This document shows positions 5,672 to 42,894 of a stretch of DNA of 42,964 bases, one piece after another. Source of the stretch: Fidelibacterota bacterium (lineage in GTDB: Bacteria; Fidelibacterota; Marinisomatia; Marinisomatales; CAZVFT01). The notes beneath the pieces were generated by a model. It saw only the letters and a program-made list of their open reading frames with translations, was not told the DNA's origin and did no database searches. Within the stretch, counting starts at the first letter, position 1. Each line of letters opens with the position of its first letter. The DNA lies in contig JACNLN010000087.1 of assembly GCA_014381485.1 (NCBI GenBank), forward strand, positions 1 to 42,964, in the 5' to 3' direction. A program made the translations under genes and the position numbers.

Positions 5672-5692
5672 AGTATCAGGAGGAAACTGAAA

Positions 5693-6082
5693 ATGGCGAC
5701 TAAAGTGACACGTGATGACGTTCTTAAGTACTTGGAAAAAGCCAATATGCTTGAGATATCTGAACTTATTTCCGAGATTGAGGAGAAATTTGGAGTTACT
5801 GCTTCAGCCCCAATTGCTGTTGCAGCTGCTGGTTCCGCTACTGCTGGTGAAGCAGAAACTGCCGAGGAGAAAGTTAGCTTTGATGTCATCCTATCGGTAG
5901 TGGGAGATAAGAAGATTCAGGTGATTAAGGTGGTACGAGAAGTTACTGACCTTGGACTAAAAGAAGCTAAGGACCTTGTTGAGGGTGCACCTAAAGCAGT
6001 AAGGGAAGGTATGTTGAAGGAAGAAGCTGAAGGAATTAAGAGTAAGTTGGAAGAAGTTGGAGCGAGCGTCGAACTGAAGTAG
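5693..6082 (+). CDS. rplL: 50S ribosomal protein L7/L12
   Basis: 129 aa. Ala-rich hinge and C-terminal [20 protein letters not shown] motif. Confidence 0.98.
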
Positions 6083-6178
6083 GCAATGAATCAAGTCTCT
6101 TTTTCTTAATAATGGTAACTTTTTGAGTTAAGGAATGCTTTTCTCAGAATGAGATAAAATCAATTTGGAGGATCTGGT

Positions 6179-9100: not shown

Positions 9101-9967
9101 CCCTGGGTAGTTGATAGAAATGTTTGGGTCCAAATTGAAGGGGTATGGAATTCTTTCAACAGAGAATGGAAGAGGGTTGAGGATAATCTTGAGCGGGAGA
9201 TTTATAAACTTCAGGTAGGTGATGAACTTCAACCTGGCGTTCTGAAACTAGCAAAAGTAAACATTGCGAGTAAACGGAAGCTCCAGGTAGGTGACAAGAT
9301 GGCTGGACGTCATGGAAATAAGGGGGTCGTTTCTGTGGTTGTTCCTGAAGAAGATATGCCATTTTTGGCTGATGGAACTCCAGTGGATATAGTTCTTAAT
9401 CCTCTTGGAGTACCTTCCCGTATGAATCTTGGTCAATTATATGAAACGATGCTTGGCTTGGCTGGTGAAAAACTTGGTGTTTCGTATGAGACGCCAGCAT
9501 TTGATGGAGCAACCCCAATACAGGTTGAAGAGGAATTAAAAAAAGCTAATATTCCCAAAGGATCTAAGGTTGAGCTTCATGATGGAAAAACCGGTGAAAA
9601 GTTCGATTATCCTGTGACAGTAGGTAAGATTTATATGATGAAATTAAACCATATGGTTGTTGATAAAATGCACGCTCGATCTACAGGTCCATACTCACTC
9701 ATCACGCAACAACCGTTAGGGGGTAAAGCCCAATTCGGAGGACAACGTTTTGGGGAGATGGAAGTTTGGGCACTTGAAGCATACGGTGCGTCTAATACCT
9801 TAAGAGAAATACTCACGGTAAAATCTGACGATGTTGAAGGTCGTTCAAAGGTCTATAATGCCATCGTAAGAGGTGAAAATATACCAAGCTTTGGGGTTCC
9901 AGAATCTTTCAACGTATTAGTGAAGGAACTTCAAGGATTGGGTGTTAATGTAGAACTACATCAATAG
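6179..9967 (+). CDS. rpoB: DNA-directed RNA polymerase subunit beta
   Basis: 1262 aa with canonical beta motifs (FFGTSQLSQFMDQTNPL, NMQRQAVP, GDKMAGRHGNKGV, GGQRFGEMEVWALEAYGA). TTG start 6 nt after a GGAGGA SD, so the exact start is somewhat uncertain. Confidence 0.98.
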   Translation: MTPNSKYKLKRQSFANIKSIIDMPDLLDVQIRSFKQFTQEDIKEDERELIGLEQVFRNAFPIEDNHKNYILEYKNYYLGLPKYNPDECIERGVTYSVPLKVRLILHLTDEYDKSKYAQSIEQDVYFGNLPHMTERGTFIINGAERVIVNQLQRSPGVFFDEHIHPNGTKLFQARVIPSRGSWVDFTTDIADCIFVIIDRRRKFPVTTLLRALGFSSNADIFRAFNLIKKVNIKSKVAEKFIGARVANDVINVETGEIFCEDGAEVTVELLEELKKTSTKTIEVAQVHDELAAEIFANTMKKDPTKNMEEALRLMYQHIRSGEPPNLETAQKFIERMFFSPKRYDLGKVGRYRINKQFDLNVPLDNTILTTDDLTMIIQYLIEMRMGQRGPDDIDHLGNRRMKTVCEQLTNQFMIAMTRMIRNVRERMNLREAESLTPQDLINSRVVTTVINTFFGTSQLSQFMDQTNPLAEITHKRRVSALGPGGLTRERAGFEVRDVHYTHYSRLCPIETPEGPNIGLISSLAMFADVNDLGFIEAPYRVVKHQNDKDAFVTQEIKYLSAEDEDRSIIAQPNIAVDEKGKIVESQVRARIKGDFPIVNPEEIQYMDVVPQQVLSVAASLIPFLEHDDANRALMGSNMQRQAVPLLNPEAPIVGTGMEKVIVHDSRGTIYSPVEGVVESVDAEKIVIRSDNIPDDIIITHEDEKNLIHISLKKYRRSNQDTCIDQRPVVSEGQKVKIGDLLADGTAVRRGELALGRNLLVAFMPWWGYNFEDAIVVTERLVKDDIFTSVSVSEIELEVRDTKRGEEELTSEIPNVSEENTKDLDENGVIRVGARVKPGDIIVGKVTPKGETDPTPEEKLLRAIFGEKAGDVKDASKKAEHGIDGVVTRTRLFERKRKGSRVQEHKIIAQLQEDVRKAKKQLKMRRDKRLKQLMENQTSAGLRDKATSKTIIKASTKLTEKRLRDLDYERIKREKPWVVDRNVWVQIEGVWNSFNREWKRVEDNLEREIYKLQVGDELQPGVLKLAKVNIASKRKLQVGDKMAGRHGNKGVVSVVVPEEDMPFLADGTPVDIVLNPLGVPSRMNLGQLYETMLGLAGEKLGVSYETPAFDGATPIQVEEELKKANIPKGSKVELHDGKTGEKFDYPVTVGKIYMMKLNHMVVDKMHARSTGPYSLITQQPLGGKAQFGGQRFGEMEVWALEAYGASNTLREILTVKSDDVEGRSKVYNAIVRGENIPSFGVPESFNVLVKELQGLGVNVELHQ

Positions 9968-9981
9968 GTGGAGGATAATAA

Positions 9982-12900
9982 TTGGTATACATAAAACCAC
10001 CCAAAGTTGATACTAGCCGAGATTTCAAAGCTGTATCTATTGGACTCACTTCTCCTGAGGAGATTCTGAATAGGTCCTATGGCGAAGTGTTGAAGCCTGA
10101 GACTATTAATTACCGATCATATAAGCCAGAGAAAGACGGATTATTCTGTGAAAAGATATTTGGTCCTGTGAAAGATTATGAGTGTCATTGCGGGAAGTAC
10201 AAAGGGATTCGTTACAGAAGCATTATCTGTGACCGTTGTGGTGTAGAAGTAACACGACGGAGAGTACGTAGAGAACGTGTGGGACACATTACCCTCGCTG
10301 TACCGGTAGTACATATTTGGTATTTGAGATCAATTCCCGGGAAAATAAGTCACCTTTTGGGCATTCCTACCCGTGAAATCGAAAAGGTAATTTATTATGA
10401 GGATTATATTATCATTAATCCTGGTGCATCAGAGAAAAAGAAGTTTGACTTGATTAATGAACTTGAATTTTTAGAACTGGAAGCTCAATTTGGAAAAGAT
10501 ACCGTTGGTGAGGAAGACCGTGATGAAGAAAATTATTTTTATGCTGCGATGGGTGGGGAAGCCATTATTGAGGCTTTCAGAACCCTTAATATTTATTCTC
10601 TAATAAAAGAGCTTGAGCATACGATTAAGACCTCGCGATCCCGTCAAAAACGTTCAGATGCTTTAAAGCGCTTAAAAGTAGTTAAAGCATTCTATCCCAG
10701 TCCAGATAAAAGACGGGTTAATCGTCCTGAATGGATGGTTATTAGTGTACTTCCGGTAATACCTCCGGAATTGAGACCTCTTGTACCACTGGAAGGTGGA
10801 CGATTTGCTGCCAGTGATCTCAATGATCTTTACAGGCGAGTAATAATTAGAAACAATCGGTTGAAACAGTTGATGGGGATTCAGGCACCGGATGTCATTC
10901 TCAGGAATGAAAAACGTATGCTTCAAGAAGCCGTAGATACACTTTTGGATAATACCCGCCGTGGAACTGCACTTAGTAGCGGAACCCGAAGACCTCTGAA
11001 AAGCTTAAGCGATATGCTTAGAGGTAAACAGGGTCGATTCCGTCAGAACCTCTTGGGTAAACGAGTGGATTATTCGGGGCGGTCTGTTATTGTGGTGGGT
11101 CCGCGCCTGAAATTGCATGAATGTGGCCTTCCGAAAGATATTGCCATTGAACTCTTCAAACCTCATTTAATCCATGAGTTGATTGTTAGAGGTTATGCAA
11201 AAACCCCAAGGGGCGGAAAACTGTTAGTTGAACAAAAGTCGCCTCAGGTGTATGATGTTCTTGAGTACGTGGTGAGAGATCATCCAGTATTGTTAAATCG
11301 GGCTCCTACTCTCCATCGTTTGGGTATTCAAGCATTCCAACCAGTTCTTGTTGATGGCAAAGCTATCCAGATTCATCCATTAGTCTGTACTGCTTTTAAT
11401 GCTGATTTCGATGGAGACCAGATGGCGGTTCATGTGCCCCTTTCTCCCGAAGCACAACTTGAAGCCAGAATGTTAATGCTTTCATCTCATAATATTCTCC
11501 ATCCAGCTCACGGTAATCCGATCACTATCCCCTCCCAAGATATGGTTCTCGGTTGTTATTACCTGACCAAGAAGAAAAAAGGAGAAAAAGGGGAAGGGAT
11601 GAATTTCTCCAGTATTGATGAGGTAGCTCTTGCATATGAAAATAAGGTCGTCGGTCTCCACGCCATTATTAATCTGAGAATCGGTGATAGATGGTTTAAA
11701 GAGACCAGTGTCGGACGTGCGATATTTAATTCAATTCTTCCTGATGAACTGGATTATATTGATATGCTGATATCGAAAAAGAAAATTGAGAAAATTATAC
11801 ATGAAGCTTATGAAAAAGCAGGAAATCACAGGACGGTTGAATTTTTAGATGACCTTAAAAAGTTTGGGTTTGATTATGCTACAAAAAGTGGGACGTCCAT
11901 ATCTATTGAAGATGTATTGGTGCCAGATGAAAAACAGAATAATATTCAACACGCTACTAAAGAGGTGAGATCAATTCAATCCAAGTATAACAGACGAATA
12001 TTGACTGAGGGTGAGAGGTATAACAAGATTATCGATGTTTGGACTCATACCACAAACAAGGTAGCTGCTGATATGATGTATCATTTAGAATCTGATCAAG
12101 AGGGGTTCAATCCGGTTTTTATGATGGCAGATTCAGGTGCACGTGGTAGTCAGGATCAGATTAGACAGCTGGCTGCCATGCGTGGATTAATGGCGAAACC
12201 TAAAAAAAGTATGACTGGCGGAAGAGGTGAAATTATCGAGAATCCTATCACTTCAAATTTTAAAGAAGGGTTATCGGTATTGGAATATTTCATTTCGACA
12301 CACGGTGCTCGGAAAGGACTTGCTGATACTGCTTTGAAAACAGCTGATGCTGGATATTTAACGCGTCGTCTTGTGGATGTTGCTCAAGATGTTGTGGTAA
12401 CAATCGAAGATTGTGGAACTATTAATGGAGTGTGGATTTCCGATTTGAAGGAAGGTGAAGAAATTATCGAACCACTTCGAGATCGTATTCGTGGACGTGT
12501 TTTACAAGAGGATATCATTCACCGAGGAAAAGTTGTGGTTAAAGAGGCGACGCCAATAGATGATGAAGTAAGCGATACAATTGCTAATCTTGGTTTGAAC
12601 AGAGTATTTATTCGTTCAGTATTAACCTGTGAAGCGAAACATGGCGTTTGTCGTAATTGTTATGGGTTGGATTTGAATACAAAAAAACTTGTGTCGATGG
12701 GCACTGCTGTGGGTATTGTTGCTGCTCAAAGCATTGGTGAACCAGGTACTCAGCTTACATTAAGGACGTTTCATATAGGTGGGACAGCTTCTAGAATTAT
12801 TGAAAAATCCCAGATGGTAACCAGCAAAGAAGGTACAATTCGATTTTCACCCAATCTAAAATGTGCAAAAGTTGTAGATGAGGAGGATATTTCAGAGACA

Positions 12901-17239: not shown

Positions 17240-18464
17240 GGAGGAACAGCACAATGGCAAAGGAGAAATTTTCGAGGACGAAGCCTCACTTAAATATAGG
17301 GACGATAGGTCATGTAGATCATGGGAAGACGACATTGACGGCAGCGATGACGTTATATTTAAGCAAGCGTGGTTTAGCAGAGGCTCGGACGTTTGATAGT
17401 ATTGATAGTGCTCCTGAGGAGCGGGAGCGAGGATTAACGATACAGACGGCACATGTGGAGTATGAGACGGATAATCGTCATTATGCACACATAGATTGTC
17501 CGGGACATGCAGATTACATCAAGAATATGATAACGGGAGCGGCACAGATGGATGGATCTGTATTGGTAGTATCGGCGGCAGATGGTCCAATGCCCCAGAC
17601 ACGTGAGCATGTATTATTAGCACGTCAGGTAAATGTTCCGGCTATTGTGGTATTTATGAACAAGACGGATCAGGTAGATGATCCGGAGTTACTGGAGTTA
17701 GTGGAGTTGGAGTTGCGTGAGTTATTGGATGAGTACAATTTTCCTGGTGATGAGATACCGATAATACAGGGTAGTGCGTTGGAGGCGTTGAGCAATCCAG
17801 AGGATGAGGAGTTGACTCGGTGTATAGTGGAGTTATTGGATGCGATAGACAGTTACATACCGGAGCCGGAGCGAGATATAGACAGGCCATTTTTGATGCC
17901 TGTGGAGGATGTATTCAGTATTACGGGACGAGGTACGGTAGGTACAGGAAGGATAGAGCGTGGGATAATAAAGGTAGGTGATTCGGTAGAGATAGTGGGA
18001 TTAGGAGAGACGAGTAAGACGGTAGTGACGGGAGTAGAGATGTTTCGTAAGATATTGGATGAGGGTCAGGCTGGAGATAATGCTGGTTTATTGTTGAGGG
18101 GAGTGGATAAGGATGATTTAAAGCGAGGTCAGGTTATATCGGCGGTAGGAAGTATCACGCCCCACACGAAGTTTGAGGCGAAGGTATATGTATTGAAGAA
18201 GGAGGAGGGAGGTCGTCACACGCCCTTTTTTGAGGGATATCGGCCTCAGTTTTATTTTCGAACGACAGATGTGACGGGCGTGGTGAGTTTGCCTGAGGGA
18301 GTAGAGATGGTGATGCCAGGAGATAATGTAAACGTTAAAGTGGAGTTGATAACACCGATAGCGATGGAGAAGGAGTTGAGGTTTGCGATTCGTGAGGGTG
18401 GTCACACCGTTGGAGCTGGAGTCGTGACGGATATTCTTGAGTAAGGAGAATCAAATTGGCTGGA
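17240..18464 (+). repeat. Direct repeat copy 2 (about 1225 bp), identical to 1739-2963
   Basis: See copy 1. The left boundary is a 1-nt indel (ATTAGG-GAGG here against ATTAGGAGG in copy 1). The right boundary is 18464/18465 (GGA|C), against 2963/2964 (GGA|A) in copy 1. Confidence 0.9.
17254..18444 (+). CDS. tuf: Elongation factor Tu (copy 2)
   Basis: 396 aa, identical to copy 1. Canonical tufA position after fusA and upstream of rpsJ. Confidence 0.99.
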
Positions 18465-32795: not shown

Positions 32796-33959
32796 ATGGA
32801 TAGGATTAATAAGGCAGCATATTTCGTTGCCTTTTTTATTATACTTCAACTGCGACTTTTTGCTGGGGAAAATGACCGGCACTTTTCCTTCCGATCTATC
32901 TGGATTGTTCGTTCGTCAATGATTTCGGAAGAAGAAATTGACAAAGCTCTGATATTTGCAAAAAAGAATCAATTTAACCATGTGTTTGTGCAGGTAAGGG
33001 GTCGTGGAGATGCTTTTTACAAAAGTAGTATAGTTCCCAGAACGTACTTAGTTCGTAATCTACTGTTTGATCCACTCTCCTATGCGATTCAAAAGGGCCA
33101 CCAATTAGGTCTTCAAGTGCATGCCTGGATGAATGTGTATTTACTCTGGTCATCAATTCAAAACCCAATCTCACAAAAGCACCTCCTAATTCAGCATCCA
33201 GAATGGGTAGATAAAAGCCTGTTATCAGAATTAAAAACTGAAATAAATCCTGAATATCCTAATAATGGAAATGATTGTAAATATCTGTCTCCCCTGGTTC
33301 CTGAGAGTCAGACATATCTATTGACAGTTTTACAGGAAGTTTTAGAAAATTATAATTGCGATGGTCTTCATCTTGATTATGTACGATTTTGCGATATAGA
33401 ATATGGTTACAACTCTATAGGATGCGGGAAATTTGAGAATGAGCATGGTGTCGATCCTCTTGAATTATTCACAAAGGGAAATCAAACATTATCTGGGACA
33501 AAACTTGATCATTTTCGAAACTTGTGGAACCAATACCGAAGAGATGCTGTGACTGATCTTATAAGGCAATGTGGTAATTTAGTATTGTCTATCAAACCAT
33601 CATGCATATTGTCGGTAGCTGTTAAGCCAGATCTTGAGGAGGCAAAAAAGCGATATTATCAGGAATGGGACCGATGGCTCGCTGAAGGATTGGTTGATTA
33701 TGTGGTACCGATGAACTATGATCCCTCATTGCGGAAGTTTGCCCATAACATTGATATCATTCATGATAATATTCCCTCTAAGTACTTACCCGGAATTGTT
33801 ATGGGAATTGCCACTTATAATCAAGATGCTCTCGATGCTCGGGATAAAGTGAGATATACAAAAGTTACAGGTTTTTCTGGGATATCGGTTTTTTCCTATG
33901 ATTCCCACAAAAATAATCTCGATTTTTTTACTCCTGTTATCATTGATATAAACCAATAA
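32796..33959 (+). CDS. Secreted glycoside-hydrolase-like protein (GHL10 / YngK-like family), putative
   Basis: 387 aa. N-terminal hydrophobic signal-like segment. FRSIWI.....I...EEID, N.VFVQVRGRGDAFY.S, VHAWMNV and DGLHLDY.RF resemble the family-10-like TIM-barrel hydrolases (Pfam GHL10). Recognised by eye and not verified by a profile search. Confidence 0.6.
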   Translation: MDRINKAAYFVAFFIILQLRLFAGENDRHFSFRSIWIVRSSMISEEEIDKALIFAKKNQFNHVFVQVRGRGDAFYKSSIVPRTYLVRNLLFDPLSYAIQKGHQLGLQVHAWMNVYLLWSSIQNPISQKHLLIQHPEWVDKSLLSELKTEINPEYPNNGNDCKYLSPLVPESQTYLLTVLQEVLENYNCDGLHLDYVRFCDIEYGYNSIGCGKFENEHGVDPLELFTKGNQTLSGTKLDHFRNLWNQYRRDAVTDLIRQCGNLVLSIKPSCILSVAVKPDLEEAKKRYYQEWDRWLAEGLVDYVVPMNYDPSLRKFAHNIDIIHDNIPSKYLPGIVMGIATYNQDALDARDKVRYTKVTGFSGISVFSYDSHKNNLDFFTPVIIDINQ

Positions 33960-34100
33960 CTCTTGCAAGATTCTGGATTATGTCCTGTTGTGTAATCAGA
34001 CACAAATTAAATTATTTCTCACACTGAGGAACTACTATAAGTAACTGTTTCATATTGTATAGTTAAAACGAAAATTGTACTTTTGTGAAGGTGTTATTTA

Positions 34101-34928
34101 ATGCCAATGAAGAGTGATATCGCAAAAAGAATAGTTGTTATTATCCTGGGAGTTCCTGGGATTATTCTCCTTTTATGGAAGGGTGGAATCTGGTTTGCAG
34201 CTCTTATTACTCTCGCGATGCTTCTTGCCCTCCGTGAATTTTACCTGATTAGTGCTAAAAAAGGTGCATCCCCATTATTGTGGGTTGGGTGGGTTGTTAC
34301 GCTTCTCGTTGCTTGGATGTATTATGGTGGAGTACCATCGGGTAACTCCTTGATCTTTTATAATATTTTTATTGTTGGATTTATTTTGACGATAGAGCTT
34401 TTTCGTAACAAACCCAATCCAACACGGAATATTTCTATCACCATTTTTGGTATTGTGTACATTTCTCTCTTTTTAGGTTCGTTAATTGCATTACGCAACT
34501 GGGATGATATGACAGGATTCCACCTGACATGGGGCGTCTTTATATCTGTCTGGATATGCGATACCACCGCTTATCTCGCAGGGAAAAAATGGGGTAAGAA
34601 AAAGATGATGGAGCGGGTAAGTCCTAATAAAACCGTTGTTGGATGTGTGGCAGGCATGTTTGGGGCAGCAATAACGTATGTGATAATGTACACTTCCGGA
34701 TTTTTAGGTAACCTCTTTGATTGGGGAGATATAATTGTGTTCGCGGTTATATCTGGAATATTTGGACAAATGGGTGACTTTGTGCAATCTTTGATAAAGC
34801 GAGATATGGAAGTGAAAGATTCAGGGAAGTTCTTATTGGGGCACGGCGGTGTTTTTGATCGTTTTGATTCCCTGTTTTTTGCAGCACCGTTGACCTATAT
34901 TTATCTCCAACTTTTTGTACCGTATTAG
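34101..34928 (+). CDS. cdsA: Phosphatidate cytidylyltransferase (CDP-diglyceride synthase)
   Basis: 275 aa, polytopic. C-terminal CdsA signature (S..KR...VKDSG....GHGG..DR.DS). Confidence 0.9.
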   Translation: MPMKSDIAKRIVVIILGVPGIILLLWKGGIWFAALITLAMLLALREFYLISAKKGASPLLWVGWVVTLLVAWMYYGGVPSGNSLIFYNIFIVGFILTIELFRNKPNPTRNISITIFGIVYISLFLGSLIALRNWDDMTGFHLTWGVFISVWICDTTAYLAGKKWGKKKMMERVSPNKTVVGCVAGMFGAAITYVIMYTSGFLGNLFDWGDIIVFAVISGIFGQMGDFVQSLIKRDMEVKDSGKFLLGHGGVFDRFDSLFFAAPLTYIYLQLFVPY

Positions 34929-34969
34929 TTACATTCAAATAGATGATATTTATTCAATAAAGTAGTTTT

Positions 34970-35404
34970 ATGACCGGGATTGATAATAAAGATAACAAAT
35001 TTTTATGGAAGGCATATCCTGCCCTTGAGCGTAAATTTGCATTTATTTCTACAACACTCGTGATTATCGCTATTTCAATCTTACTTTACATATCCTTTCA
35101 AAGTCTTTTCTGGAGTGTCTTTTCCGTAGTGATTCTAATTATTTCTTTAAACAGATTCTACTTTCCAAGTGTGTATTCCATTGATTCTCAGGAAATCATA
35201 GCTAAATATTTTTTCCGTAAACAGCGATACCTCTGGAAAAATATCCGTAGATTTAATTACACGAAATATGGTGGATATCTATCTGGTAGGAAACAACCTT
35301 CACGGTTGGATGCATTTCGCGGTATGCATATTTTATTTGGCTCTCATCGAGATGATATCATATCTAAAATTCAAACTTACTTAAATAAATCTGATACACA
35401 TTGA
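34970..35404 (+). CDS. Hypothetical small membrane protein (two predicted TM helices plus a basic C-terminal domain)
   Basis: 144-aa ORF. Hydrophobic segments FAFISTTLVIIAISILLYISF and FWSVFSVVILIISL. I recognise no family. Its stop overlaps the next ORF's start by 4 nt. Confidence 0.55.
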   Translation: MTGIDNKDNKFLWKAYPALERKFAFISTTLVIIAISILLYISFQSLFWSVFSVVILIISLNRFYFPSVYSIDSQEIIAKYFFRKQRYLWKNIRRFNYTKYGGYLSGRKQPSRLDAFRGMHILFGSHRDDIISKIQTYLNKSDTH

Positions 35405-35790
35405 GCTGGTTAAAACACGCATTTGCTGTTGATGAAGTTGGTTCAGTACAACCTACTGAGACGCAGAAAGTTGTTGTTGATCGAGTATGTCAAGAAATTG
35501 CGAGAAGACATCTCACGACTCCTGCGCTTCTTTTTCTTGAGACATTTCGTCCCCTGAATTTTATTGGGGCACAAGCGATGCATTTTTTCCATCCGATTGT
35601 TTCAGCTATTCTAAGTGGTGATGGTTACAGGCATTTTGCGGAGTTTCTTGAGAAAAGGGGAAGTGTTGATTATTTCTGTGAAAGAATTGAATACTTTGAA
35701 GAACAATATTCCAAACAGAAATCAACTGGTGGAAGGAGTGATAACAACCCAAAAAACGAAACTTCAGATATTAATGGCCATGTTCTATGA
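35401..35790 (+). CDS. Hypothetical protein
   Basis: 129-aa ORF. TTG start overlaps the upstream stop (ATTGA). I recognise no family. Coding is supported only by ORF length and the coupling geometry. Confidence 0.45.
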   Translation: MSWLKHAFAVDEVGSVQPTETQKVVVDRVCQEIARRHLTTPALLFLETFRPLNFIGAQAMHFFHPIVSAILSGDGYRHFAEFLEKRGSVDYFCERIEYFEEQYSKQKSTGGRSDNNPKNETSDINGHVL

Positions 35791-35819
35791 AACAATTGAA
35801 TAAACACGAAAATCATGTC

Positions 35820-36005
35820 ATAGCCCCGTCCTTTAGGGCGGGGTTGAGAAATGTGAACATATATTATGACGCCGTTTCCGCATGTCCCGACAAGTCGGGA
35901 GCGGACAGGCACGGCGTTATTTACGAAAGAGCTTGTCTAATAAAGGGCGTGAACGCCCTGTCTTGTTATTGCGATTTTATTCCCCGCCCTAAAGGACGGG
36001 GCTAT
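35820..36005. repeat. 186-bp element: perfect 24-bp terminal inverted repeats around a 138-bp hairpin-rich, GC-rich core (MITE-like element or structured RNA)
   Basis: ATAGCCCCGTCCTTTAGGGCGGGG (35820-35843) is the exact reverse complement of CCCCGCCCTAAAGGACGGGGCTAT (35982-36005). Each arm is itself a near-palindrome. The core holds a 51-nt compound hairpin (35868-35918) and AGGGCG-TGAA-CGCCCT (35944-35959). Confidence 0.85.
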
Positions 36006-36109
36006 AGATATATTCAATCAGTCAGAAGCCGGATAGGAACTGATATAAATTGTGATACATCAACGTTAATTTTCCTGATTAATTATTCAGATTCAGAAAT
36101 GAAATAGAA

Positions 36110-39100
36110 ATGTTGAAACGAAGTGTAAATCCCGCAACGGCGGGGAAAATAATCGATCCTGAAAAGATTAATGTTATTCTCGCTACTGATTGTGGAAGTA
36201 CAACCACAAAAGCGATATTAGTACAAAAAATAGATGGTCACTACCGCCAGACTCATCGGGGAGAAGCTCCATCCACAGTAGAGGAGCCTTTTGCTGATGT
36301 TACAGTTGGTGTGATAAATTCGGTGACTGAGGTAACAGAGTTAGCTGGACGAAGACTGATTGATGACAATGGTAAGATTATCCAACCAGCTACAGAGAAT
36401 GAAGGATGTGATCTCTATATTTCCACATCCAGTGCTGGTGGTGGACTTCAGATGATGGTGGCAGGTGTGATTCGAGAGATGACGGCTGCCAGTGCAAAGC
36501 GAGCGGCTCTTGGTGCTGGTGCCATCGTTATGGATATTATTGCCTCCAATGACAGGCGGAAACCGCACGAGCAGATTCAACGAATTCGCGACTTACGTCC
36601 CGATATGATGCTGCTGTCCGGGGGTACCGATGGCGGAACAACTACTCACGTTGTTAAAATCGCAGAACTTGTAGCGCCGGCAAAACCGCAACCAAGATTT
36701 GGTGCACAATATCAACTTCCTATTATTTATGCAGGAAACAGGGATGCCATTCAAAATATCGAAGGACTGTTTCAAAATGAAGAATTTGATCTGTCAATCG
36801 TTGATAATTTGCGACCTGTATTAGAAATGGAAAATCTTAGTCCCGCCCGGGATGCTATTCACGATCTCTTTCTCGAACACGTTATGGCACACGCACCCGG
36901 TTACAATAAATTGATGGATTGGACAGATGCTCCAATTATGCCCACACCGGGAGCGGTTGGAAATATTCTCCAGACTATCGCTGAACAGCAGGGTATTAAC
37001 GTGGTGGGAGTTGACATAGGTGGAGCCACAACAGATATCTTCAGCATCTTCGATGGTACATTTAATCGGACTGTGAGTGCAAATCTTGGGATGAGCTATT
37101 CCATTTCGAACGTTTGTGCTGAGACAACTATGCCAAATATCCTCAGGTGGGTACATCTGGATATGGAAGAGCGGAGCGTTCGGAATCGTGTGAAAAACAA
37201 GATGATACGACCAACAACTATTCCACAGTCAATGGAAGCGTTAATTTTTGAACAGGCAGTAGCCCGCGAAGCACTCCGGTTGGCTTATGAACAGCATAAA
37301 GAATTTGCTACCACCTTGAAAGGTGTCCAGCGCCAGCGATCTGTGGGGGATACTTTCAGTCAGGAGATGGGTGGACTGACGATTGTTGATAATATGAAAC
37401 TGAACCTTCTTGTAGCGTCAGGAGGAGTTCTTTCCCACGCGCCAAGGATGCATCAAACTGCATTGCTTCTCATAGATGCCTTCCAGCCTGAAGGAGTGAC
37501 AACATTGGCAAAGGATAGTATTTTTATGATGCCACATCTTGGTGTGTTGGCACAGGTACATCCTCAGGCTGCTATGGAAGTTTTCGAAAAGGATTGTCTG
37601 ATCTACCTCGGAACAGTTATTGCTCCAGCGGGTCGTACAAAAGCCGGTAAGTTGTGCTTTTCCTATAAAATTAGCGGTGAGACACTGAATGAATCCGGAG
37701 AAATCATATTTGGAGAGATGAAATTATTTCCTCTCGGTTTAGATGAAACAGCTGACATTATTATTGAACCACCTAAATCTTTTGATGTAGGAAATGGGCC
37801 TGGGAAACGATTAAAGAAACAGGTGCGTGGCGGTTTGGTAGGATTGATTCTCGATGGTCGCGGTCGTCCTCTGAATCTTCCCGAAGATCAATCGCAATCT
37901 AAAATCTCTGTCGGTCAATGGGTTGATGATATTGATCTGTATCCTGTTCAACAGGTGGAAGAAAGGGACGCTCCTCCTTCAATTTCTGTCGATACAGAAA
38001 AAACAGGAACAGCAAAAGAAATTGGACCTAAAAAGGCTCACGCTTATACTCCCGGACTCAAAGTTACTCATCGGACAACTATCCAGCGACGACGGGTTCT
38101 TCCTATTCCCGGGAAAGTCGTTGTAAAAGTTGGAGATATGATTGAGGCTCAGCAAGTGGTGGCGGAAACGTTTATGCCCGGTGACGTCATTCCCATAAAC
38201 CTCGCCAATTTACTCTCACTGCCACCGGGAGATGTCCCCGAATGTATGGTAGTCAAAGAAGGAGACAAAGTAGAAGTGGGAGATATCCTTGCCAGAACCA
38301 AAGGGATATTTGGATTTTTTAAGCATGAATTCAGGAGTAAAGATGCTGGCAAAGTTGAAACCATTTCGGAGGTGACGGGACAGGTAATACTCCGTGGTCC
38401 GGAGCATCCTGTTGATGTTCTGGCTTTTTATCCCGGAAAAATTGTAGAAGTGATTGAAAATCAAGGTGTAATCATCGAATCTGAAGTCACGTTTGTTCAG
38501 GGTATTTTCGGAATAGGGGGTGAAACTTTTGGTAAAATCAAGATGGCGTGTGAATCTCCTGATGAACAATTAACTGAGGATCATATCACTCCGGATATGA
38601 AAGGGTGTGTTATCGTTGGTGGTGCCAGAATGACTGCAAAAGCAATTAACAAAGCTGTGGAAGTGAAAGCTGCTGGCATTGTTTCTGGAGGTATTGATGA
38701 TCAGGATTTAAAGACATTTCTGGGATATGACCTGGGAGTGGCTATTACCGGTTCTGAAAATCTTGGAATAACTTTGATTATCACGGAAGGTTTTGGAAAT
38801 ATTGCTATGGCTGAACGAACATTTAATCTTCTCAAATCCAGAGAAGGGGGTGAGGTTTCCATAAATGGTGCGACACAGATTCGAGCAGGTGTCATAAGAC
38901 CTGTTATTGTTATTCCTGTGGATGAAACCGTTCTCCCTGCGGTAGATGAAAAGGATCATATATCCGGTCAATTGGAAATAGGATATCCCGTTCGAATTAT
39001 TCGCGATCCTTTCTTTGGAATTATCGGAAAAGTTCATAGTTTACCACCTGAGCCACAGGTACTTGAATCAGGTTCAAAAGCGCGTGTACTTAAAGTTTCA

Positions 39101-39178
39101 GTTGATTCAGGTTCGCCAATTACGATTCCAAGGGCTAACGTAGAACTCATTGAAGGAGAGGGAAAGAACGAATTGTGA
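36110..39178 (+). CDS. Large fusion protein: N-terminal GlmL/MutL-type ASKHA (actin-fold) ATPase domain plus an unassigned C-terminal region of about 500 aa
   Basis: 1022 aa. The N-terminal ~500 aa carry an ordered motif series: ATDCGSTTTKAILV (phosphate-1), STSSAGGGLQMMV, LLSGGTDGG, VGVDIGGATTDIFS (phosphate-2) and LVASGGVLSHAP. This series is characteristic of the glutamate-mutase accessory GlmL family. The C-terminal part has repeated barrel-sandwich-like V.VGD.I...Q/V.EGDKVEVGDILA motifs and a Gly-rich segment. I recognise no family for it. Confidence 0.8.
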   Translation: MLKRSVNPATAGKIIDPEKINVILATDCGSTTTKAILVQKIDGHYRQTHRGEAPSTVEEPFADVTVGVINSVTEVTELAGRRLIDDNGKIIQPATENEGCDLYISTSSAGGGLQMMVAGVIREMTAASAKRAALGAGAIVMDIIASNDRRKPHEQIQRIRDLRPDMMLLSGGTDGGTTTHVVKIAELVAPAKPQPRFGAQYQLPIIYAGNRDAIQNIEGLFQNEEFDLSIVDNLRPVLEMENLSPARDAIHDLFLEHVMAHAPGYNKLMDWTDAPIMPTPGAVGNILQTIAEQQGINVVGVDIGGATTDIFSIFDGTFNRTVSANLGMSYSISNVCAETTMPNILRWVHLDMEERSVRNRVKNKMIRPTTIPQSMEALIFEQAVAREALRLAYEQHKEFATTLKGVQRQRSVGDTFSQEMGGLTIVDNMKLNLLVASGGVLSHAPRMHQTALLLIDAFQPEGVTTLAKDSIFMMPHLGVLAQVHPQAAMEVFEKDCLIYLGTVIAPAGRTKAGKLCFSYKISGETLNESGEIIFGEMKLFPLGLDETADIIIEPPKSFDVGNGPGKRLKKQVRGGLVGLILDGRGRPLNLPEDQSQSKISVGQWVDDIDLYPVQQVEERDAPPSISVDTEKTGTAKEIGPKKAHAYTPGLKVTHRTTIQRRRVLPIPGKVVVKVGDMIEAQQVVAETFMPGDVIPINLANLLSLPPGDVPECMVVKEGDKVEVGDILARTKGIFGFFKHEFRSKDAGKVETISEVTGQVILRGPEHPVDVLAFYPGKIVEVIENQGVIIESEVTFVQGIFGIGGETFGKIKMACESPDEQLTEDHITPDMKGCVIVGGARMTAKAINKAVEVKAAGIVSGGIDDQDLKTFLGYDLGVAITGSENLGITLIITEGFGNIAMAERTFNLLKSREGGEVSINGATQIRAGVIRPVIVIPVDETVLPAVDEKDHISGQLEIGYPVRIIRDPFFGIIGKVHSLPPEPQVLESGSKARVLKVSVDSGSPITIPRANVELIEGEGKNEL

Positions 39179-40368
39179 GACGTTTTATTACATCTGTTTT
39201 TGTTTTTGGATTGATTATTATTAACAGTGCTTTTGGAGAGATTCCCTCTCCCGAACCTCCAGCTAATCTGATAGCCGAAGATCATCCCTGGGACCACGGA
39301 GATAAAATTGATTTATCCTGGGACTTATCTATTGATGATTCGAAACTTGTGGAATCTTATCGAATTTATTCTTCCACTTCATCTGAAGTTCCTTTTACTG
39401 TCGTTACCAATATCTCTTCCGGTGAAAATTCATTTATTGTTGAGAAGCTGAAACGAAACCAGGAGTACTTTTTCCAGGTGACTGCAGTGGGGTTAGATGG
39501 TCAGGAATCAACCCCTGCCAGAACGGAAATTGCAGTTGTACCCACAAGGCAGTGGTTCGATGGTAACCGATTTTCTCTGGCGATCATCACACTGATTTTT
39601 TGTGGGTCTGTTTTCTACTGGATTAATCACGCTCGAAAGGGACGACCGCTGAAAATTCGAAAGATAGCAGGATTAGAAGCGGTGGATGAAGCGGTGGGTC
39701 GTGCCACAGAGATGGGGCGTTCATGTCTCTTTATCGCTGGTATTCAAGATATGAATGAGATACAAACTATTGCAGGTATTACTGTTTTATCGAGAGTGGC
39801 TAAGACCGCTGCTGAGTTCGATGCCAGGGTGGAAGTTCCTACCAGCCGTTCACTTGTGATGACAGCAGCAAGAGAAACAGTTCAGGCATCCTATCTTGCA
39901 GCAGGCAGACCAGACGCTTATAACGAGGATAATATTTATTATGTTACTGATGAGCAATTTGGATATGTGGCTTATGTTCAGGGAATGATGGTCAGGGAAA
40001 AACCAGCAGCTTGCTTTTATATGGGTGCTTTTTTTGCAGAATCTCTGATTTTAGCTGAAACGGGGAATTCCATTGGTGCCATTCAGGTGGCTGGAACGGC
40101 TATGCCTGCCCAGCTCCCATTCTTTGTGGCTGCCTGCGATTACACATTGATTGGTGAGGAATTCTTTGCTGCATCGGCTTACCTTTCAGGAGAACCTGAT
40201 CAGCTTGGCAGCCTTAAGGGGCAGGATGTCGGAAAAGTTATCGTCATGGCTGGCATCATTATTGGAGTTACGATGTTAACGGTAGGTATGATTGCAGGCA
40301 TTGATACACCGTTTGGCAGCTGGTTAAATGATGCTGTAAGATTTTTACGAAGTGTTATACTAACCTAG
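39175..40368 (+). CDS. Membrane protein: signal peptide, FN3-like ectodomain, TM helix, ~190-aa cytoplasmic domain, C-terminal TM helix
   Basis: 397 aa. GTG start overlaps the upstream stop (GTGA). Signal-like FVFGLIIINSAFG. FN3-like PP.NL.A......I.LSW......V..Y.IY...........V......N.F....L....EYFF.V.AV...G.ES. TM helices FSLAIITLIFCGSVFYWI and VIVMAGIIIGVTMLTVGMIAGI. Confidence 0.75.
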   Translation: MRRFITSVFVFGLIIINSAFGEIPSPEPPANLIAEDHPWDHGDKIDLSWDLSIDDSKLVESYRIYSSTSSEVPFTVVTNISSGENSFIVEKLKRNQEYFFQVTAVGLDGQESTPARTEIAVVPTRQWFDGNRFSLAIITLIFCGSVFYWINHARKGRPLKIRKIAGLEAVDEAVGRATEMGRSCLFIAGIQDMNEIQTIAGITVLSRVAKTAAEFDARVEVPTSRSLVMTAARETVQASYLAAGRPDAYNEDNIYYVTDEQFGYVAYVQGMMVREKPAACFYMGAFFAESLILAETGNSIGAIQVAGTAMPAQLPFFVAACDYTLIGEEFFAASAYLSGEPDQLGSLKGQDVGKVIVMAGIIIGVTMLTVGMIAGIDTPFGSWLNDAVRFLRSVILT

Positions 40369-40381
40369 GAAAGTTATCTGA

Positions 40382-41080
40382 ATGAAACGGACTGTTCCAC
40401 TTATTATTACAGCACTTGGGGGATTTGTCCTTATTGTTGCCTATTTCATCCCTGCAACACAGAACTGGGGTGAAGTTGCAGCGATCTGGTTTGATATCCT
40501 TGCATCCATTGCTTTCGTACTCGGAGGTGGTAATCTCATTAGAATTCATTTAAAGAAGGTTTCTAACAAAGGTGCAGGGTGGGGATACTCCCTCATCACT
40601 ATTGTTGCTTTTCTTGCAACACTGGTTGTGGGATTGGGGAAGATTGGAGTCCATCCAAGTGCGTTATACCCGAATTTTCCTCTTTCGGGGGAATACAGAG
40701 AGCTGGGGAGTCCTTTCTGGTGGCTCTATGAGTATGCGTTCAAACCACTCACGGCGACAATGTTTGCCATGCTTGCATTCTACATAGCCTCAGCTGCTTT
40801 TCGTGCTTTCAGGGCAAAAAATATTGAAGCAATACTCCTTCTTAGTACAGCATTCATCATCCTGTTAGGCAGGACTTTTGCCGGAGTTTTTCTTACTTCC
40901 TGGATGCCCGATTTCTTGAGTGGTCTGCGAATTGAAAATCTAACCATTTACATTATGAGTGTATTTAATACCGCAGGAAATAGAGCAATCATGATCGGCA
41001 TTGCTTTGGGAATAGCATCTACTTCTCTAAAAGTTTTACTGGGAGTTGACAGGTCCTATCTGGGAACTGGAGAAAAGTAA
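40382..41080 (+). CDS. Polytopic membrane protein (about 6 TM), unknown function
   Basis: 232-aa ORF, 13 nt after the upstream stop, with multiple hydrophobic helices. I recognise no family. Confidence 0.7.
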   Translation: MKRTVPLIITALGGFVLIVAYFIPATQNWGEVAAIWFDILASIAFVLGGGNLIRIHLKKVSNKGAGWGYSLITIVAFLATLVVGLGKIGVHPSALYPNFPLSGEYRELGSPFWWLYEYAFKPLTATMFAMLAFYIASAAFRAFRAKNIEAILLLSTAFIILLGRTFAGVFLTSWMPDFLSGLRIENLTIYIMSVFNTAGNRAIMIGIALGIASTSLKVLLGVDRSYLGTGEK

Positions 41081-41083
41081 TTT

Positions 41084-41956
41084 ATGTTTGAATTCTTTAA
41101 AAATCTTGATCGGCGTTGGATTTTCCTGCTCATGTTCATCTCTGTATCTATCCCGATCTATATTGTTGGTAAGACAGGGAAGACCTTCCCCGAAGTACCC
41201 ACGATTCTTTCGGAGGAAACATTTCGAGCTATTGAAGAACTCAATGAAGGGGATCCAGTTCTGTTATCGTTTGACTTTGATCCAGCGAGTGAAGGTGAAC
41301 TTGGACCTATGGCAACAGCTTTTACCTATCACTGTGCCTCGAAAGGGTTAAAATTATATTTTATGGCTCTATGGCCTGTGGGACCGCAAATGATTGACGA
41401 TGTTATCGAAAAGGTCATCAAACCTGATTTCCCTCATATGGAGTATGGTATTGATTATGTGAATATTGGATTCAAACCGGGAAATGAGGGCGTCATCAAA
41501 GTTATCGTCACCGACCTGCGTCAGCTTTACACGACAGATGACAAAGGGACAAACATTGATAAAATCCCAATGATGGCAGACATCCACAGTGTACAGGATT
41601 TTGAACTTGTTATGAATATCAGCGCTGGCTATGCAGGTACAAAGGAGTGGGTCCAATATGCTGTCACCCCATATCCAGATAAGATTAAACTTGTAGCAGG
41701 TTGTACGGGTGTTCAAGCGCCCCTGCTTTATCCGTATATTCCCGATCAGTTACCCGGACTTCTTGGCGCTATCAAAGGAGCGGCTGAGTATGAAAAACTG
41801 GTTGTGGATAAATATGCGGGTGAAACACCGGATCCAAAGTATCTTGAAGGGAGACGGAGAATGGGACCCCAGCTTGTGGCTCATCTATTGATCATCCTAC
41901 TCATAATTTTGGCTAATGTTATTTACTTTGGCGAGAAAAGACGTGAGGTTCGTTGA
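41084..41956 (+). CDS. Bitopic membrane protein: N- and C-terminal TM anchors flanking a ~230-aa soluble domain, unknown function
   Basis: 290-aa ORF, 3 nt after the upstream stop. TM helices WIFLLMFISVSIPIYIV and LVAHLLIILLIILANVIYF. By eye, the soluble domain weakly resembles the cytoplasmic domain of the 39175-40368 product. Confidence 0.7.
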   Translation: MFEFFKNLDRRWIFLLMFISVSIPIYIVGKTGKTFPEVPTILSEETFRAIEELNEGDPVLLSFDFDPASEGELGPMATAFTYHCASKGLKLYFMALWPVGPQMIDDVIEKVIKPDFPHMEYGIDYVNIGFKPGNEGVIKVIVTDLRQLYTTDDKGTNIDKIPMMADIHSVQDFELVMNISAGYAGTKEWVQYAVTPYPDKIKLVAGCTGVQAPLLYPYIPDQLPGLLGAIKGAAEYEKLVVDKYAGETPDPKYLEGRRRMGPQLVAHLLIILLIILANVIYFGEKRREVR

Positions 41957-42894
41957 TGAAGCGTGAGACGGTCATCTGGGTCATTCTGTTGGTGATTGGT
42001 GGTTTATTCCTGATGGGTCGGCTGTTTTTCAGTGACCAGGGAATGGGGAAGGTATACGTTCAGGCTGTTGAAATAAACCCCGATGACCCGGTTCCAGAAC
42101 ACCGATGGATACGATATGAAAATGCTGACCCTAAAGAATACAAACAAGCCATGGATGAAAATCCCAATCAAACTGAATTTCAGTTGAGTATCTCTCGAAC
42201 AATTGGGATTTGGGTAGCGGCATTTTTCACTCTGTTTGTTCTGTCATTTCTCTACCGGGATAATCCTTTCTACAAGATAGCTGAATCAGTAGTTGTTGGT
42301 GTTTCTGCAGGATACTGGATGGTGGTTGGGTTCTGGACAACTATCATTCCAAATCTGCTTGGCAAACTATTTCCTGTGTGGATCAATAGCTGGGCAATGC
42401 CGGGTCTGGAAGCAAGCAGAGAATTGATGTATATCTTTCCTCTAATTCTTGGGATTATGCTTCTTATGCGCCTATCACCAAAAGGTGCCTGGATTAGCCG
42501 ATGGCCCCTGGCTTTTATCATTGGTACTACCGCTGGCATTCGACTCATCGGATTCTTACATGCAGATTTTTTGACCCAGATTCGAAACACAATCATCACA
42601 ATCTGGGCTACAGACCCGAGTGGTGCATTTGACTTCTGGGGTTCATTAAGGTCCCTGGTTCTCATAATCGGAGTACTGGCAGCCATTGTTTATTTCTTCT
42701 TTTCCATTGAGCATAAGGGGATTGTGGGCAAAACCGCTAAATTAGGTATCTGGTTCCTGATGATTACTTTTGGCGCTGCCTTTGGATATACTGTTATGGG
42801 ACGTATTGCCCTTCTTGCCATCCGTATGGAGTTCCTCATGGACGATTGGCTGTGGCTTATTGATCCAGCGTTAAAACGGACTTTTGGAATGTAA
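41953..42894 (+). CDS. Polytopic membrane protein (about 7-8 TM), unknown function
   Basis: 313-aa ORF. The start (TTG 41953 or ATG 41956) overlaps the upstream stop. Highly hydrophobic throughout. I recognise no family. Confidence 0.7.
   Translation: MMKRETVIWVILLVIGGLFLMGRLFFSDQGMGKVYVQAVEINPDDPVPEHRWIRYENADPKEYKQAMDENPNQTEFQLSISRTIGIWVAAFFTLFVLSFLYRDNPFYKIAESVVVGVSAGYWMVVGFWTTIIPNLLGKLFPVWINSWAMPGLEASRELMYIFPLILGIMLLMRLSPKGAWISRWPLAFIIGTTAGIRLIGFLHADFLTQIRNTIITIWATDPSGAFDFWGSLRSLVLIIGVLAAIVYFFFSIEHKGIVGKTAKLGIWFLMITFGAAFGYTVMGRIALLAIRMEFLMDDWLWLIDPALKRTFGM

Follow-up and report, generated by a model that had tools for sequence, protein, structure and literature searches.

What does a MutL-family ATPase do in a gene cluster that otherwise encodes membrane proteins and has no B12 mutase in sight? 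The question is raised by a locus on contig JACNLN010000087.1 from a Fidelibacterota bacterium (assembly GCA_014381485.1), of which we analysed the whole stretch of 42,964 nucleotides (nt), hereafter the window. A sequence-only reading had described positions 36110-42894 as a tightly coupled five-gene operon, in which a GlmL-type actin-fold ATPase fused to a C-terminal region of about 500 residues is followed by four membrane proteins. In related and distant genomes the locus proves to be part of a larger, conserved cluster with two separable parts: a membrane tetrad (g2-g5), and a module made of the ATPase, a partner protein and two small upstream proteins (u1 and u2), which several tetrads can share. 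We favour, tentatively, a two-module ATP-driven membrane machine in which a shared cytoplasmic ATPase would drive interchangeable tetrads, with a target in the envelope that is possibly a lipid. All that we say about function is drawn from sequence, genomic context and two predicted structures. The cluster in the window consists of the following features.

34970..35404, + strand: u1, 144 residues, with two N-terminal hydrophobic helices by hydropathy; the first gene of the conserved cluster.
35401..35790, + strand: u2, 129 residues, overlapping u1 by 4 nt.
36110..39178, + strand: g1, an open reading frame (ORF) of 1022 residues in which ATPase and partner are fused.
36110..37924, + strand: g1N, the ASKHA-fold ATPase of the Pfam MutL/GlmL family (residues 1-605; Pfam domain at nt 36176-37597).
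37925..38032, + strand: linker in g1 (residues 606-641) with gap-rich, variable alignment columns, which arose by gene fusion.
38033..39178, + strand: g1C, the partner of about 380 residues, its own gene in most relatives and fused in the window.
39175..40368, + strand: g2, 397 residues, with an fn3 domain (nt 39301-39522) and a DUF6754 domain (nt 39544-40290).
40382..41080, + strand: g3, 232 residues, polytopic, with about six transmembrane helices.
41084..41956, + strand: g4, 290 residues, with a transmembrane helix, a Rossmann-like alpha/beta domain and a long transmembrane helix.
41953..42894, + strand: g5, 313 residues, polytopic, the last gene of the tetrad.

Is the ATPase a GlmL? Residues 23-496 of g1 match Pfam MutL (PF13941) over the entire profile (positions 1-450 of 450; E=1.9e-126, 422.9 bits against a gathering cut-off of 27 bits). 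The ASKHA motifs follow in order, namely phosphate-1 ATDCGSTTTKA (residues 25-35), phosphate-2 DIGGATTD (302-309) and adenosine SGGVLSHAP (437-445), with a further motif, SGGTDGG, at residues 170-176. Across 24 relatives, down to 56% identity, the ASKHA motif residues are mostly invariant and the remainder nearly so, and judging by these residues the ATPase is probably catalytically competent. Family membership and motif set were thus read correctly from the window, but identity with GlmL was not. The protein scores below the cut-offs of all three GlmL-type NCBIfam models, i.e., the GlmL equivalog NF040745 (232.8 bits versus 475), Or-4 NF040744 from GlmL-related ornithine degradation (207.4 versus 600) and the TIGR01319 glmL_fam subfamily (170.8 versus 204.05), which places it in a sister clade inside Pfam MutL. 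A weak secondary Pfam match, to Hydantoinase_A, covers residues 286-325 (E=2e-5). A profile search of PDB sequences returned no relative of the ATPase family.

Database names suggest a different answer: homologues are called 'glutamate mutase L' or 'methylaspartate mutase', and some JGI records assign them to the 'TIGR01319 family'. These names would be apt if the protein were a genuine accessory factor of glutamate mutase or of the ornithine pathway, with the mutase genes elsewhere in the genome. However, the three sub-threshold scores count against this explanation, as does the linkage of the ATPase to partner and tetrad in 49 of 53 related loci with enough flank. Nor does any mutase or B12-binding family appear in the flank listings examined: none is encoded in nine loci whose genes were listed for up to 10 kb to either side, in agreement with the absence of a B12 mutase partner first noticed in the window, and none is among the 25 most frequent of 79 neighbour families in a Pfam survey of the 141 ORFs closest to the cluster in about 55 loci. 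The mutase explanation is largely refuted, and we consider it barely credible.

The C-terminal 500 residues or so of g1 were taken in the sequence-only reading for a single fused region. The fusion is real, whereas the region resolves into three parts: a family-specific extension of about 110 residues, a poorly conserved linker of about 35 residues and a protein of about 380 residues. Homologues of g1 fall into two size classes, one of about 1000 residues (mostly in Marinimicrobia-type genomes) and one of about 605 residues (mainly in Planctomycetota and Phycisphaerales); the latter are 77-86% identical to the first 59% of g1 and also carry the extension. ATPase and partner are separate genes in 60 of 72 loci, fused in 12 and adjacent in all, and unfused partners begin where residue ~642 of the window protein aligns (MAHAYTPGL). 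The fusion is therefore lineage-specific, and since the two proteins are always adjacent and sometimes fused, the pair is obligate.

How far does the unit extend? The five ORFs and their spacings of -4, +13, +3 and -4 nt from g1 to g5, as given in the sequence-only reading, agree with the ORF list and with direct reads of the junctions; the genes are translationally coupled. The g1/g2 junction is GTGA, in which the GTG start of g2 overlaps the TGA stop of g1; the 13 nt between g2 and g3 contain the Shine-Dalgarno-like AGGAAAG; g3 and g4 are 3 nt apart, and the g4/g5 junction reads CGTTGATGAAG. To judge from this junction, an ATG start for g5 at 41956 (TGATG, a 1-nt overlap with the g4 stop) would be at least as likely as TTG at 41953. 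Every start at the junctions read has a Shine-Dalgarno-like motif, GGAG or AGGA, some 5-20 nt to its 5' side. Between 33900 and 42964, sigma-70-like sites are rarer than in shuffled sequence (9 versus 20.2) and terminator-like sites show no enrichment (10 versus 7.6), which is consistent with a single transcription unit.

Five genes are nevertheless too few. In 65 of 81 related loci tblastn places a u1 homologue (23-87% identity) at the matching position, and in 75 of 81 it places a u2 homologue (37-96% identity) directly upstream of the ATPase. In two loci (L001 and L083) u2 overlaps the ATPase start by 4 nt, and it is present in distant loci that bear the ATPase (27-38% identity) and absent from loci that lack it. 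Neither u1 nor u2 has a Pfam match, and their conserved positions across related loci indicate that both belong to the cluster. The unit in the window is thus one of seven ORFs, representing eight gene families, and spans about 8 kb.

To gauge conservation, we compared the window proteins by tblastn with 82 loci from species-representative genomes, taking phylum labels from the record titles. The order u1-u2-ATPase-partner-DUF6754-g3-g4-g5, on one strand, is found with all eight units in 42 of the 53 loci that have enough flank and with seven in 49, a conservation of gene order far beyond chance. The genomes concerned are labelled as at least six phyla or lineages (Neomarinimicrobiota, Planctomycetota including Phycisphaerales, Gemmatimonadota, Acidobacteriota, Verrucomicrobia and Desulfobacterales), and the cluster also occurs in soil, groundwater and sediment metagenomes; the neighbourhood comparison proposed along with the original operon thus upholds its gene order. 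The labels recovered are those of metagenome-assembled genomes, with no named cultured host among them. On a Phycisphaerales chromosome and other long contigs, two small ORFs, a MutL of about 605 residues and a 375-residue protein precede a tetrad made of the DUF6754 protein and proteins of 232, about 290-310 and about 250-360 residues.

Identity to the window protein is 73-97% (median 76%) for the ATPase, 44-94% (60%) for the partner, 24-94% (58%) for g2, 44-96% (67%) for g3, 43-98% (60%) for g4 and 40-94% (56%) for g5. The upstream gene cdsA provides an internal control. Twelve Marinimicrobia-type loci encode a CdsA homologue (40-96% identity) upstream of the cluster, and in 11 of these genomes, the near-identical relative L003 aside, CdsA is 40-55% identical whereas the ATPase is 77-83% identical. 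An ATPase so far above CdsA in the same genomes points to unusually strong constraint on the cluster; cross-phylum transfer probably also contributes to its conservation.

Conservation at the level of actin (73-97%), together with the ASKHA fold, invites a cytoskeletal explanation in which the ATPase would form actin-like filaments or oligomers tethered by the tetrad for positioning, shape or division, following a logic familiar from MreB-RodZ, FtsA and PilM-PilN. Yet the ATPase belongs to the GlmL/hydantoinase branch rather than to that of actin, MreB or ParM, and none of its relatives in the former is known to us to polymerise. The neighbour survey and the flanks link no gene for cell division or shape to the cluster, and a ratio of one ATPase to one to three tetrads (see below) fits a scaffold poorly. 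We regard this explanation as very improbable.

Do ATPase and membrane proteins always occur together? Distant loci were fetched with distant g3 representatives and by scanning metagenomes with a diverse g3 alignment, which gave 83 different loci, sampled in soils, groundwater, sediments and hypersaline sites. Wherever tetrad genes were found in these loci, the order g2-g3-g4-g5 is kept. In 27 of them u2, ATPase (56-65% identical) and partner stand ahead of the tetrad. Ten contain two or three tandem tetrads; L088, L128 and L148, for example, have two tetrads behind one ATPase module, and L170 has three beside a divergently oriented ATPase and partner. Ten have a tetrad without any MutL in the locus (at least 8 kb upstream and up to 10 kb on each side). 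We considered whether a different cytoplasmic partner replaces the ATPase in these loci; upstream of the tetrad they encode unrelated housekeeping functions (M23 peptidase, aconitase, PmbA/TldD, ribosomal S1 and photolyase) and thus offer no substitute. Because the tetrad keeps its order whether it stands once or several times behind one ATPase module or has none in the locus, it is the evolutionary unit and core of the system, and u1-u2-ATPase-partner is a separable module that several tetrads can share.

In about 14 of the distant ATPase-bearing loci (L093, L094, L098, L102, L104, L110, L111, L112, L118, L122, L123, L130, L155 and L165), a Memo-like protein of about 415-430 residues (PF01875, E=5e-39 in L094) is encoded on the same strand directly 3' of g5, and it may be a ninth, clade-specific component. 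In one JGI contig (L090), the MutL and DUF6754 genes are broken into short ORFs (5675-6968 and 8921-9987), which could reflect a decaying copy of the cluster or frameshift errors of assembly.

What is known of the tetrad proteins themselves? The sequence-only reading had placed none of the membrane proteins in a family, which remains true of g3, g4 and g5 with respect to Pfam and NCBIfam and is not true of g2. This protein has an fn3 domain (PF00041; residues 43-116, E=5e-7, 30.3 bits against a cut-off of 25) and a DUF6754 domain (PF20539; residues 124-372, E=1.2e-126, 421.6 bits against a cut-off of 27), the latter a Pfam family of no known function. By hydropathy, g2 has an N-terminal signal-like helix and transmembrane helices at residues 133-151 (inside DUF6754) and 355-373. 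With a signal peptide and an exported FN3 domain followed by one transmembrane helix, the soluble part of the DUF6754 domain should be cytoplasmic. A PDB profile search with the g2 family matches the FN3 part only (titin FN3 domains), and the family numbers at least 8000 clusters in a DUF6754 database search, with no names other than hypothetical, FN3 or DUF6754. Relatives of g2 range from 300 to 974 residues, with FN3/Ig-like repeats. At the start of the ectodomain (residues 36-42, ~39280-39300) a motif D-x-P-x-D-x-G (consensus DTPNDxG) is kept in at least 92% of 65 diverse g2 proteins; in an otherwise variable ectodomain, it may bind a metal or a ligand.

Among the membrane subunits g3 is the most conserved. 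It bears the hallmark motif ATMFxxLAFxIASAAFRAFRA(K/R) and has 1952 representatives (50% clustering, E<=1e-3) in a search of 1.84 billion proteins. Its only Pfam signals are weak, sub-threshold matches to DUF7521 in 13 of 26 members, and profile searches of PDB sequences found no relative of the g3 or g5 families. The loop between transmembrane helices 3 and 4 of g3 carries inserts of 0-400 residues across relatives. In some Planctomycetota the insert is a charged, helical, repeat-like segment of about 390 residues (L002 14580-16487, L019 14305-16155 and L059 15126-16979), and a like pattern is seen in many g3 representatives of 500-670 residues. An intein was considered for the insert in these three loci and set aside: it is a helical loop expansion with neither a Hint domain nor a splicing signature.

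An AlphaFold2 model of g4 (predicted local distance difference test score, pLDDT, 82; predicted TM-score, pTM, 0.84) has a Rossmann-like domain between two long helices, for which Foldseek gives generic Rossmann matches only (E~1e-3, TM-score 0.2-0.37). Conserved motifs are DFDPASEGELxPMA and GCTGVQAPLLYPYIP, and all 2476 clusters found in a g4 search are named 'hypothetical'. A glutamine-amidotransferase-like function, considered for a C-x-G-x-Q motif, was rejected in view of the generic Foldseek matches and a cysteine that is not kept in distant members. For g5, about 6-7 transmembrane helices are seen by eye and 5 by hydropathy scan, with the motifs YFFFSxEHKG and TFGAAFGYTVMGR. Paralogy between subunits (g2 and g4, g3 and g5, and others) was not detected by hhalign with shallow or deep alignments. 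Overall, ectodomains and loops vary widely, whereas membrane and cytoplasmic parts are conserved and have dense invariant motifs, notably in the DUF6754 and g4 domains (e.g., GAIQxAGT...QxPFF...CDYTLIGEE).

These motifs and the distant loci bear on the chief rival to our reading, namely that the tetrad is a self-sufficient membrane enzyme or transporter and that ATPase and partner serve it as an ATP-dependent factor for maintenance, assembly or activation. GlmL, EutA and DdrAB are thought or known to serve B12 enzymes in this way as chaperones or reactivases. The family relationship to GlmL (PF13941 E=1.9e-126; NF040745 at 233 bits) argues for such a role, and tetrads without an ATPase (10 loci) or with two or three copies per ATPase are as expected of an accessory factor; the invariant motifs of DUF6754 and g4, moreover, resemble ligand or active sites. 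On the other hand, no other protein of the cluster is as conserved as the ATPase, an unusual ranking for an accessory chaperone, searches of the tetrad (Pfam, NCBIfam and Foldseek of g4) detected no family that binds cofactors or has catalytic activity, and the fact that u1 and u2 travel with the ATPase suggests a larger, dedicated module. We consider a maintenance role somewhat unlikely, while taking it seriously.

Could the partner, rather than the ATPase, reveal the chemistry? Its domains comprise a beta-rich N-terminal part with a barrel-sandwich-hybrid (biotinyl/lipoyl-like) fold, an alpha/beta middle and a KOW/SH3-like C-terminus, and its AlphaFold2 model (pLDDT 82) likewise shows beta-rich N-terminal and alpha/beta middle parts, followed by a small beta domain at the C-terminus. 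Foldseek matches of the model in the PDB are at domain level only (Thermotoga maritima NusG, E=8e-6, TM-score 0.15; Spt5 and ribosomal KOW domains), and a profile search of PDB sequences found no relative of the family. Across 27 family members, Pfam detects Biotin_lipoyl in 19, RnfC_N in 12 (E<=0.01) and KOW in 4. The window partner itself is below threshold for RnfC_N (20.7 bits; cut-off 25.6) and NQRA_N (15.2 bits; cut-off 25), and the likeness of its N-terminal part to these domains is at fold level only. An NqrA/RnfC-like respiratory subunit was rejected for the partner: the Pfam matches are sub-threshold and neither protein is among the 50 best Foldseek matches listed.

The hairpin lysine of biotinyl/lipoyl carriers is present in the window partner (ARTKG) and in most members; many others have P, Q, T, R or A in its place, so that a swinging-arm cofactor cannot be universal. 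Since the partner has a lipoyl/biotinyl-like domain that usually keeps this lysine, some neighbours are of interest. Genes resembling lipoate/biotin ligases (BPL_LplA_LipB) lie beside or near the cluster in L088/L089 (15481-16287), L148 (12087-12830), L162 (12101-12823), L100 (57-512) and L001 (2320-3099), an LplA-like gene lies 3' of the cluster in at least four loci, and GcvP genes lie upstream of it in L084/L085, L088/L089, L146 and L148.

A vectorial enzyme would draw on these features. Here the ATPase would be a small-molecule kinase or a carboxylase-type enzyme that chemically modifies a substrate exchanged with the tetrad, by group translocation or membrane-coupled metabolism. The secondary match to Hydantoinase_A points in this direction, as the hydantoinase/oxoprolinase/acetone-carboxylase branch uses ATP for substrate phosphorylation (PMC5214803), and so do the barrel-sandwich domain in 19 of 27 partners, with the hairpin lysine kept in most, and the LplA-like gene after the cluster in at least four loci. 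However, no HyuB-like catalytic partner was found, the lysine is replaced in many members, and no metabolic genes are consistently linked in the neighbour survey. An enzyme of this kind appears quite unlikely.

What might such a machine act on? The commonest Pfam families among the 141 neighbour ORFs are PlsX (10), CdsA (9) and FabH (9), with YegS/DAGK (3) and FabD (2) at lower counts. The cdsA gene lies upstream in Marinimicrobia-type loci, including the window, and Planctomycetota loci have plsX-fabH downstream, preceded in L001 by rpmF. Two independent lineages thus place the cluster beside phospholipid and fatty-acid genes, which is a lead rather than proof.

The sequence-only reading had spoken of an ATP-driven envelope or transport machine, and we infer the same kind of system, with more parts. 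In the model that we prefer, module A would sit at the cytoplasmic face and comprise u1 (membrane-anchored), u2, the ASKHA ATPase and the partner of about 375 residues, and module B would be the membrane tetrad, with an FN3-transmembrane-DUF6754-transmembrane protein, a protein of about six transmembrane helices, a protein with a Rossmann-like domain between two transmembrane helices and one of about 6-7 transmembrane helices. ATPase and partner would dock on the cytoplasmic DUF6754 domain. Nucleotide-driven closure of the ASKHA domain would be relayed via the partner to DUF6754 and then to the transmembrane subunits, where it would perform work, mechanical or translocating, at the inner membrane. 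A single ATPase module would serve several paralogous tetrads, like a shared energising module. More speculatively, the cargo or target would be an envelope component, e.g., a phospholipid or lipid-linked precursor. Overlapping or <=13-nt junctions, and an eight-unit order kept intact in 42 of 53 loci with enough flank, support a stoichiometric complex.

Several points weigh against this model: (i) Given the ATPase-less tetrads, the membrane part may need no ATP, or may rely on an ATPase gene at another locus. (ii) No subunit resembles a known transporter fold or family in Pfam, PDB profile searches or Foldseek of g4. (iii) To our knowledge, ATPases of this ASKHA branch act as kinases, carboxylases, hydrolases or reactivating chaperones, and none as a transport motor. 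(iv) Physical contact between the modules is conjectural. (v) The positive-inside rule leaves the g4 domain ambiguous between the two sides of the membrane. (vi) The lipid link rests on two lineages and is possibly synteny by descent, and the neighbours in other clades differ (Memo-like, GcvP and LplA-like). We therefore hold the two-module machine as a tentative preference. The bolder version, in which the cluster would be the founding example of an ASKHA-powered primary translocase, a new class beside such established ATP-driven pumps and transporters as the ABC and P-type ATPases, and one that moves envelope lipids or their precursors in many diderm phyla, seems to us unlikely. If it were true, it would open a first real way into the function of the GlmL/MutL family, long unexplained.

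Other features of the locus lie around this core.

34101..34928, + strand: cdsA, CDP-diglyceride synthase (Pfam CTP_transf_1, E=1.6e-57), context and not a core part.
35815..36011, + strand: palindromic element between u2 and g1, identified by its inverted arms and RNA fold.

The end of cdsA is 41 nt from the start of u1. The palindrome is a structured insertion of about 200 nt between u2 and the ATPase gene, found in the window and in the 97%-identical relative L003. Its arms are perfect 24-nt inverted repeats (35820-35843 and 35982-36005) and its predicted RNA fold reaches -102.5 kcal/mol (z=-10.5), with three inner hairpins of which one is terminator-like (35944-35959). It is kept in L003 with one compensatory pair change and the loss of one hairpin through a 33-nt deletion. 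An Rfam search of this intergenic element gave no family match; it could be a regulatory or processing RNA or an insertion similar to a miniature inverted-repeat transposable element. The G+C fraction is 0.43-0.44 across 36001-42000, within the cluster, versus 0.37-0.38 across 33001-36000 just upstream, a step that could reflect past horizontal transfer or the constrained Gly/Ala-rich composition of the proteins.

Further upstream, positions 1-32777 hold a long run of + strand ORFs whose sizes and order in the ORF list resemble a ribosomal-protein/rpoB-rpoC/secY/rpoA region; by the same list, two ORFs of 396 residues (1753-2943 and 17254-18444) could be duplicate tuf genes. Between this run and cdsA, 32796-33959 encodes a 387-residue protein of the GHL10 (glycosyl hydrolase-like 10) family, which L003 alone among the related loci also carries. 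None of the seven proteins matched a component of the PADLOC-DB anti-phage defence models and no plasmid or phage copies of the cluster were matched; the cluster is neither mobile nor defensive.

The cluster is carried by abundant uncultured marine lineages (SAR406/Marinimicrobia and marine Planctomycetota) and by bacteria of soil, groundwater and sediment. Few things in these genomes are as conserved, and thousands of sequence clusters represent it, under the names 'hypothetical', 'FN3 domain-containing' or 'DUF6754' and, for the ATPase, 'glutamate mutase L'; most of the latter entries in these phyla are misnamed. All components but FN3 lack a known function or a solved-structure relative detectable by sequence (ATPase, partner, g2, g3 and g5 searched). 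An ASKHA fold is not known to power such membrane complexes, and its pairing here with a modular membrane unit suggests that ATP is coupled to the cell envelope in a manner not yet recognised.

How, finally, does the cluster compare with known systems? Literature searches returned nothing on it, and Pfam, NCBIfam, PADLOC, PDB profiles and Foldseek (partner and g4 models) assign it to no described system, as the sequence-only reading had supposed. Judged by its sequences, the cluster appears to lie outside every known kind of system, sharing the full set of defining features with none of those compared. With GlmL/MutL, the accessory protein of coenzyme-B12 glutamate mutase, the ATPase shares PF13941 end to end and the ASKHA motif set. 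Unlike GlmL, it falls under the NCBIfam cut-offs, carries the C-terminal extension of about 110 residues and, in the loci examined, is never beside glmE/glmS and always beside the partner, usually with a DUF6754 tetrad. EutA and the diol dehydratase reactivase DdrAB are ASKHA-type ATPases that serve another complex, and the accessory-like copy number seen here would fit such a role; in contrast to them, there is no B12 enzyme here and no Pfam EutA match was reported, and the client would be a membrane complex.

PilM-PilN-PilO, GspL-GspM, FtsA and MreB-RodZ include cytoplasmic ASKHA proteins docked on membrane proteins. The logic of an actin-fold protein coupled via membrane proteins to periplasmic domains is common to these systems and the present one, but they are related neither in sequence nor by family: the membrane partners here, two of them polytopic, are unrelated to theirs, no pilus, secretion or division genes are linked (pilus and secretin genes being absent from the flanks examined), and the window proteins match no Pfam family of PilM/GspL-type ASKHA proteins or of PilN, PilO or GspM. 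The ATP-binding subunits of hydantoinase A, oxoprolinase and acetone and acetophenone carboxylases (PF01968; PMC5214803) form a related ASKHA branch to which the ATPase has a weak local Pfam match; this match spans about 40 residues around the phosphate-2 motif, and no HyuB-type catalytic subunit is present here. The N-terminal barrel-sandwich of RnfC/NqrA and the biotinyl/lipoyl domains are approached by the partner through sub-threshold matches of its N-terminal part, whereas its hairpin lysine, unlike that of the carriers, is not universal, and RnfC and NqrA are not among the 50 Foldseek matches listed. No ABC_tran, energy-coupling factor (ECF) or permease family is matched by the five proteins (Pfam and NCBIfam) or by u1 and u2 (Pfam). 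As in ECF and ATP-binding cassette (ABC) transporters, one ATPase module here accompanies one to three paralogous membrane modules, some of which are encoded alone; unlike in those transporters, the ATPase fold is ASKHA rather than P-loop.

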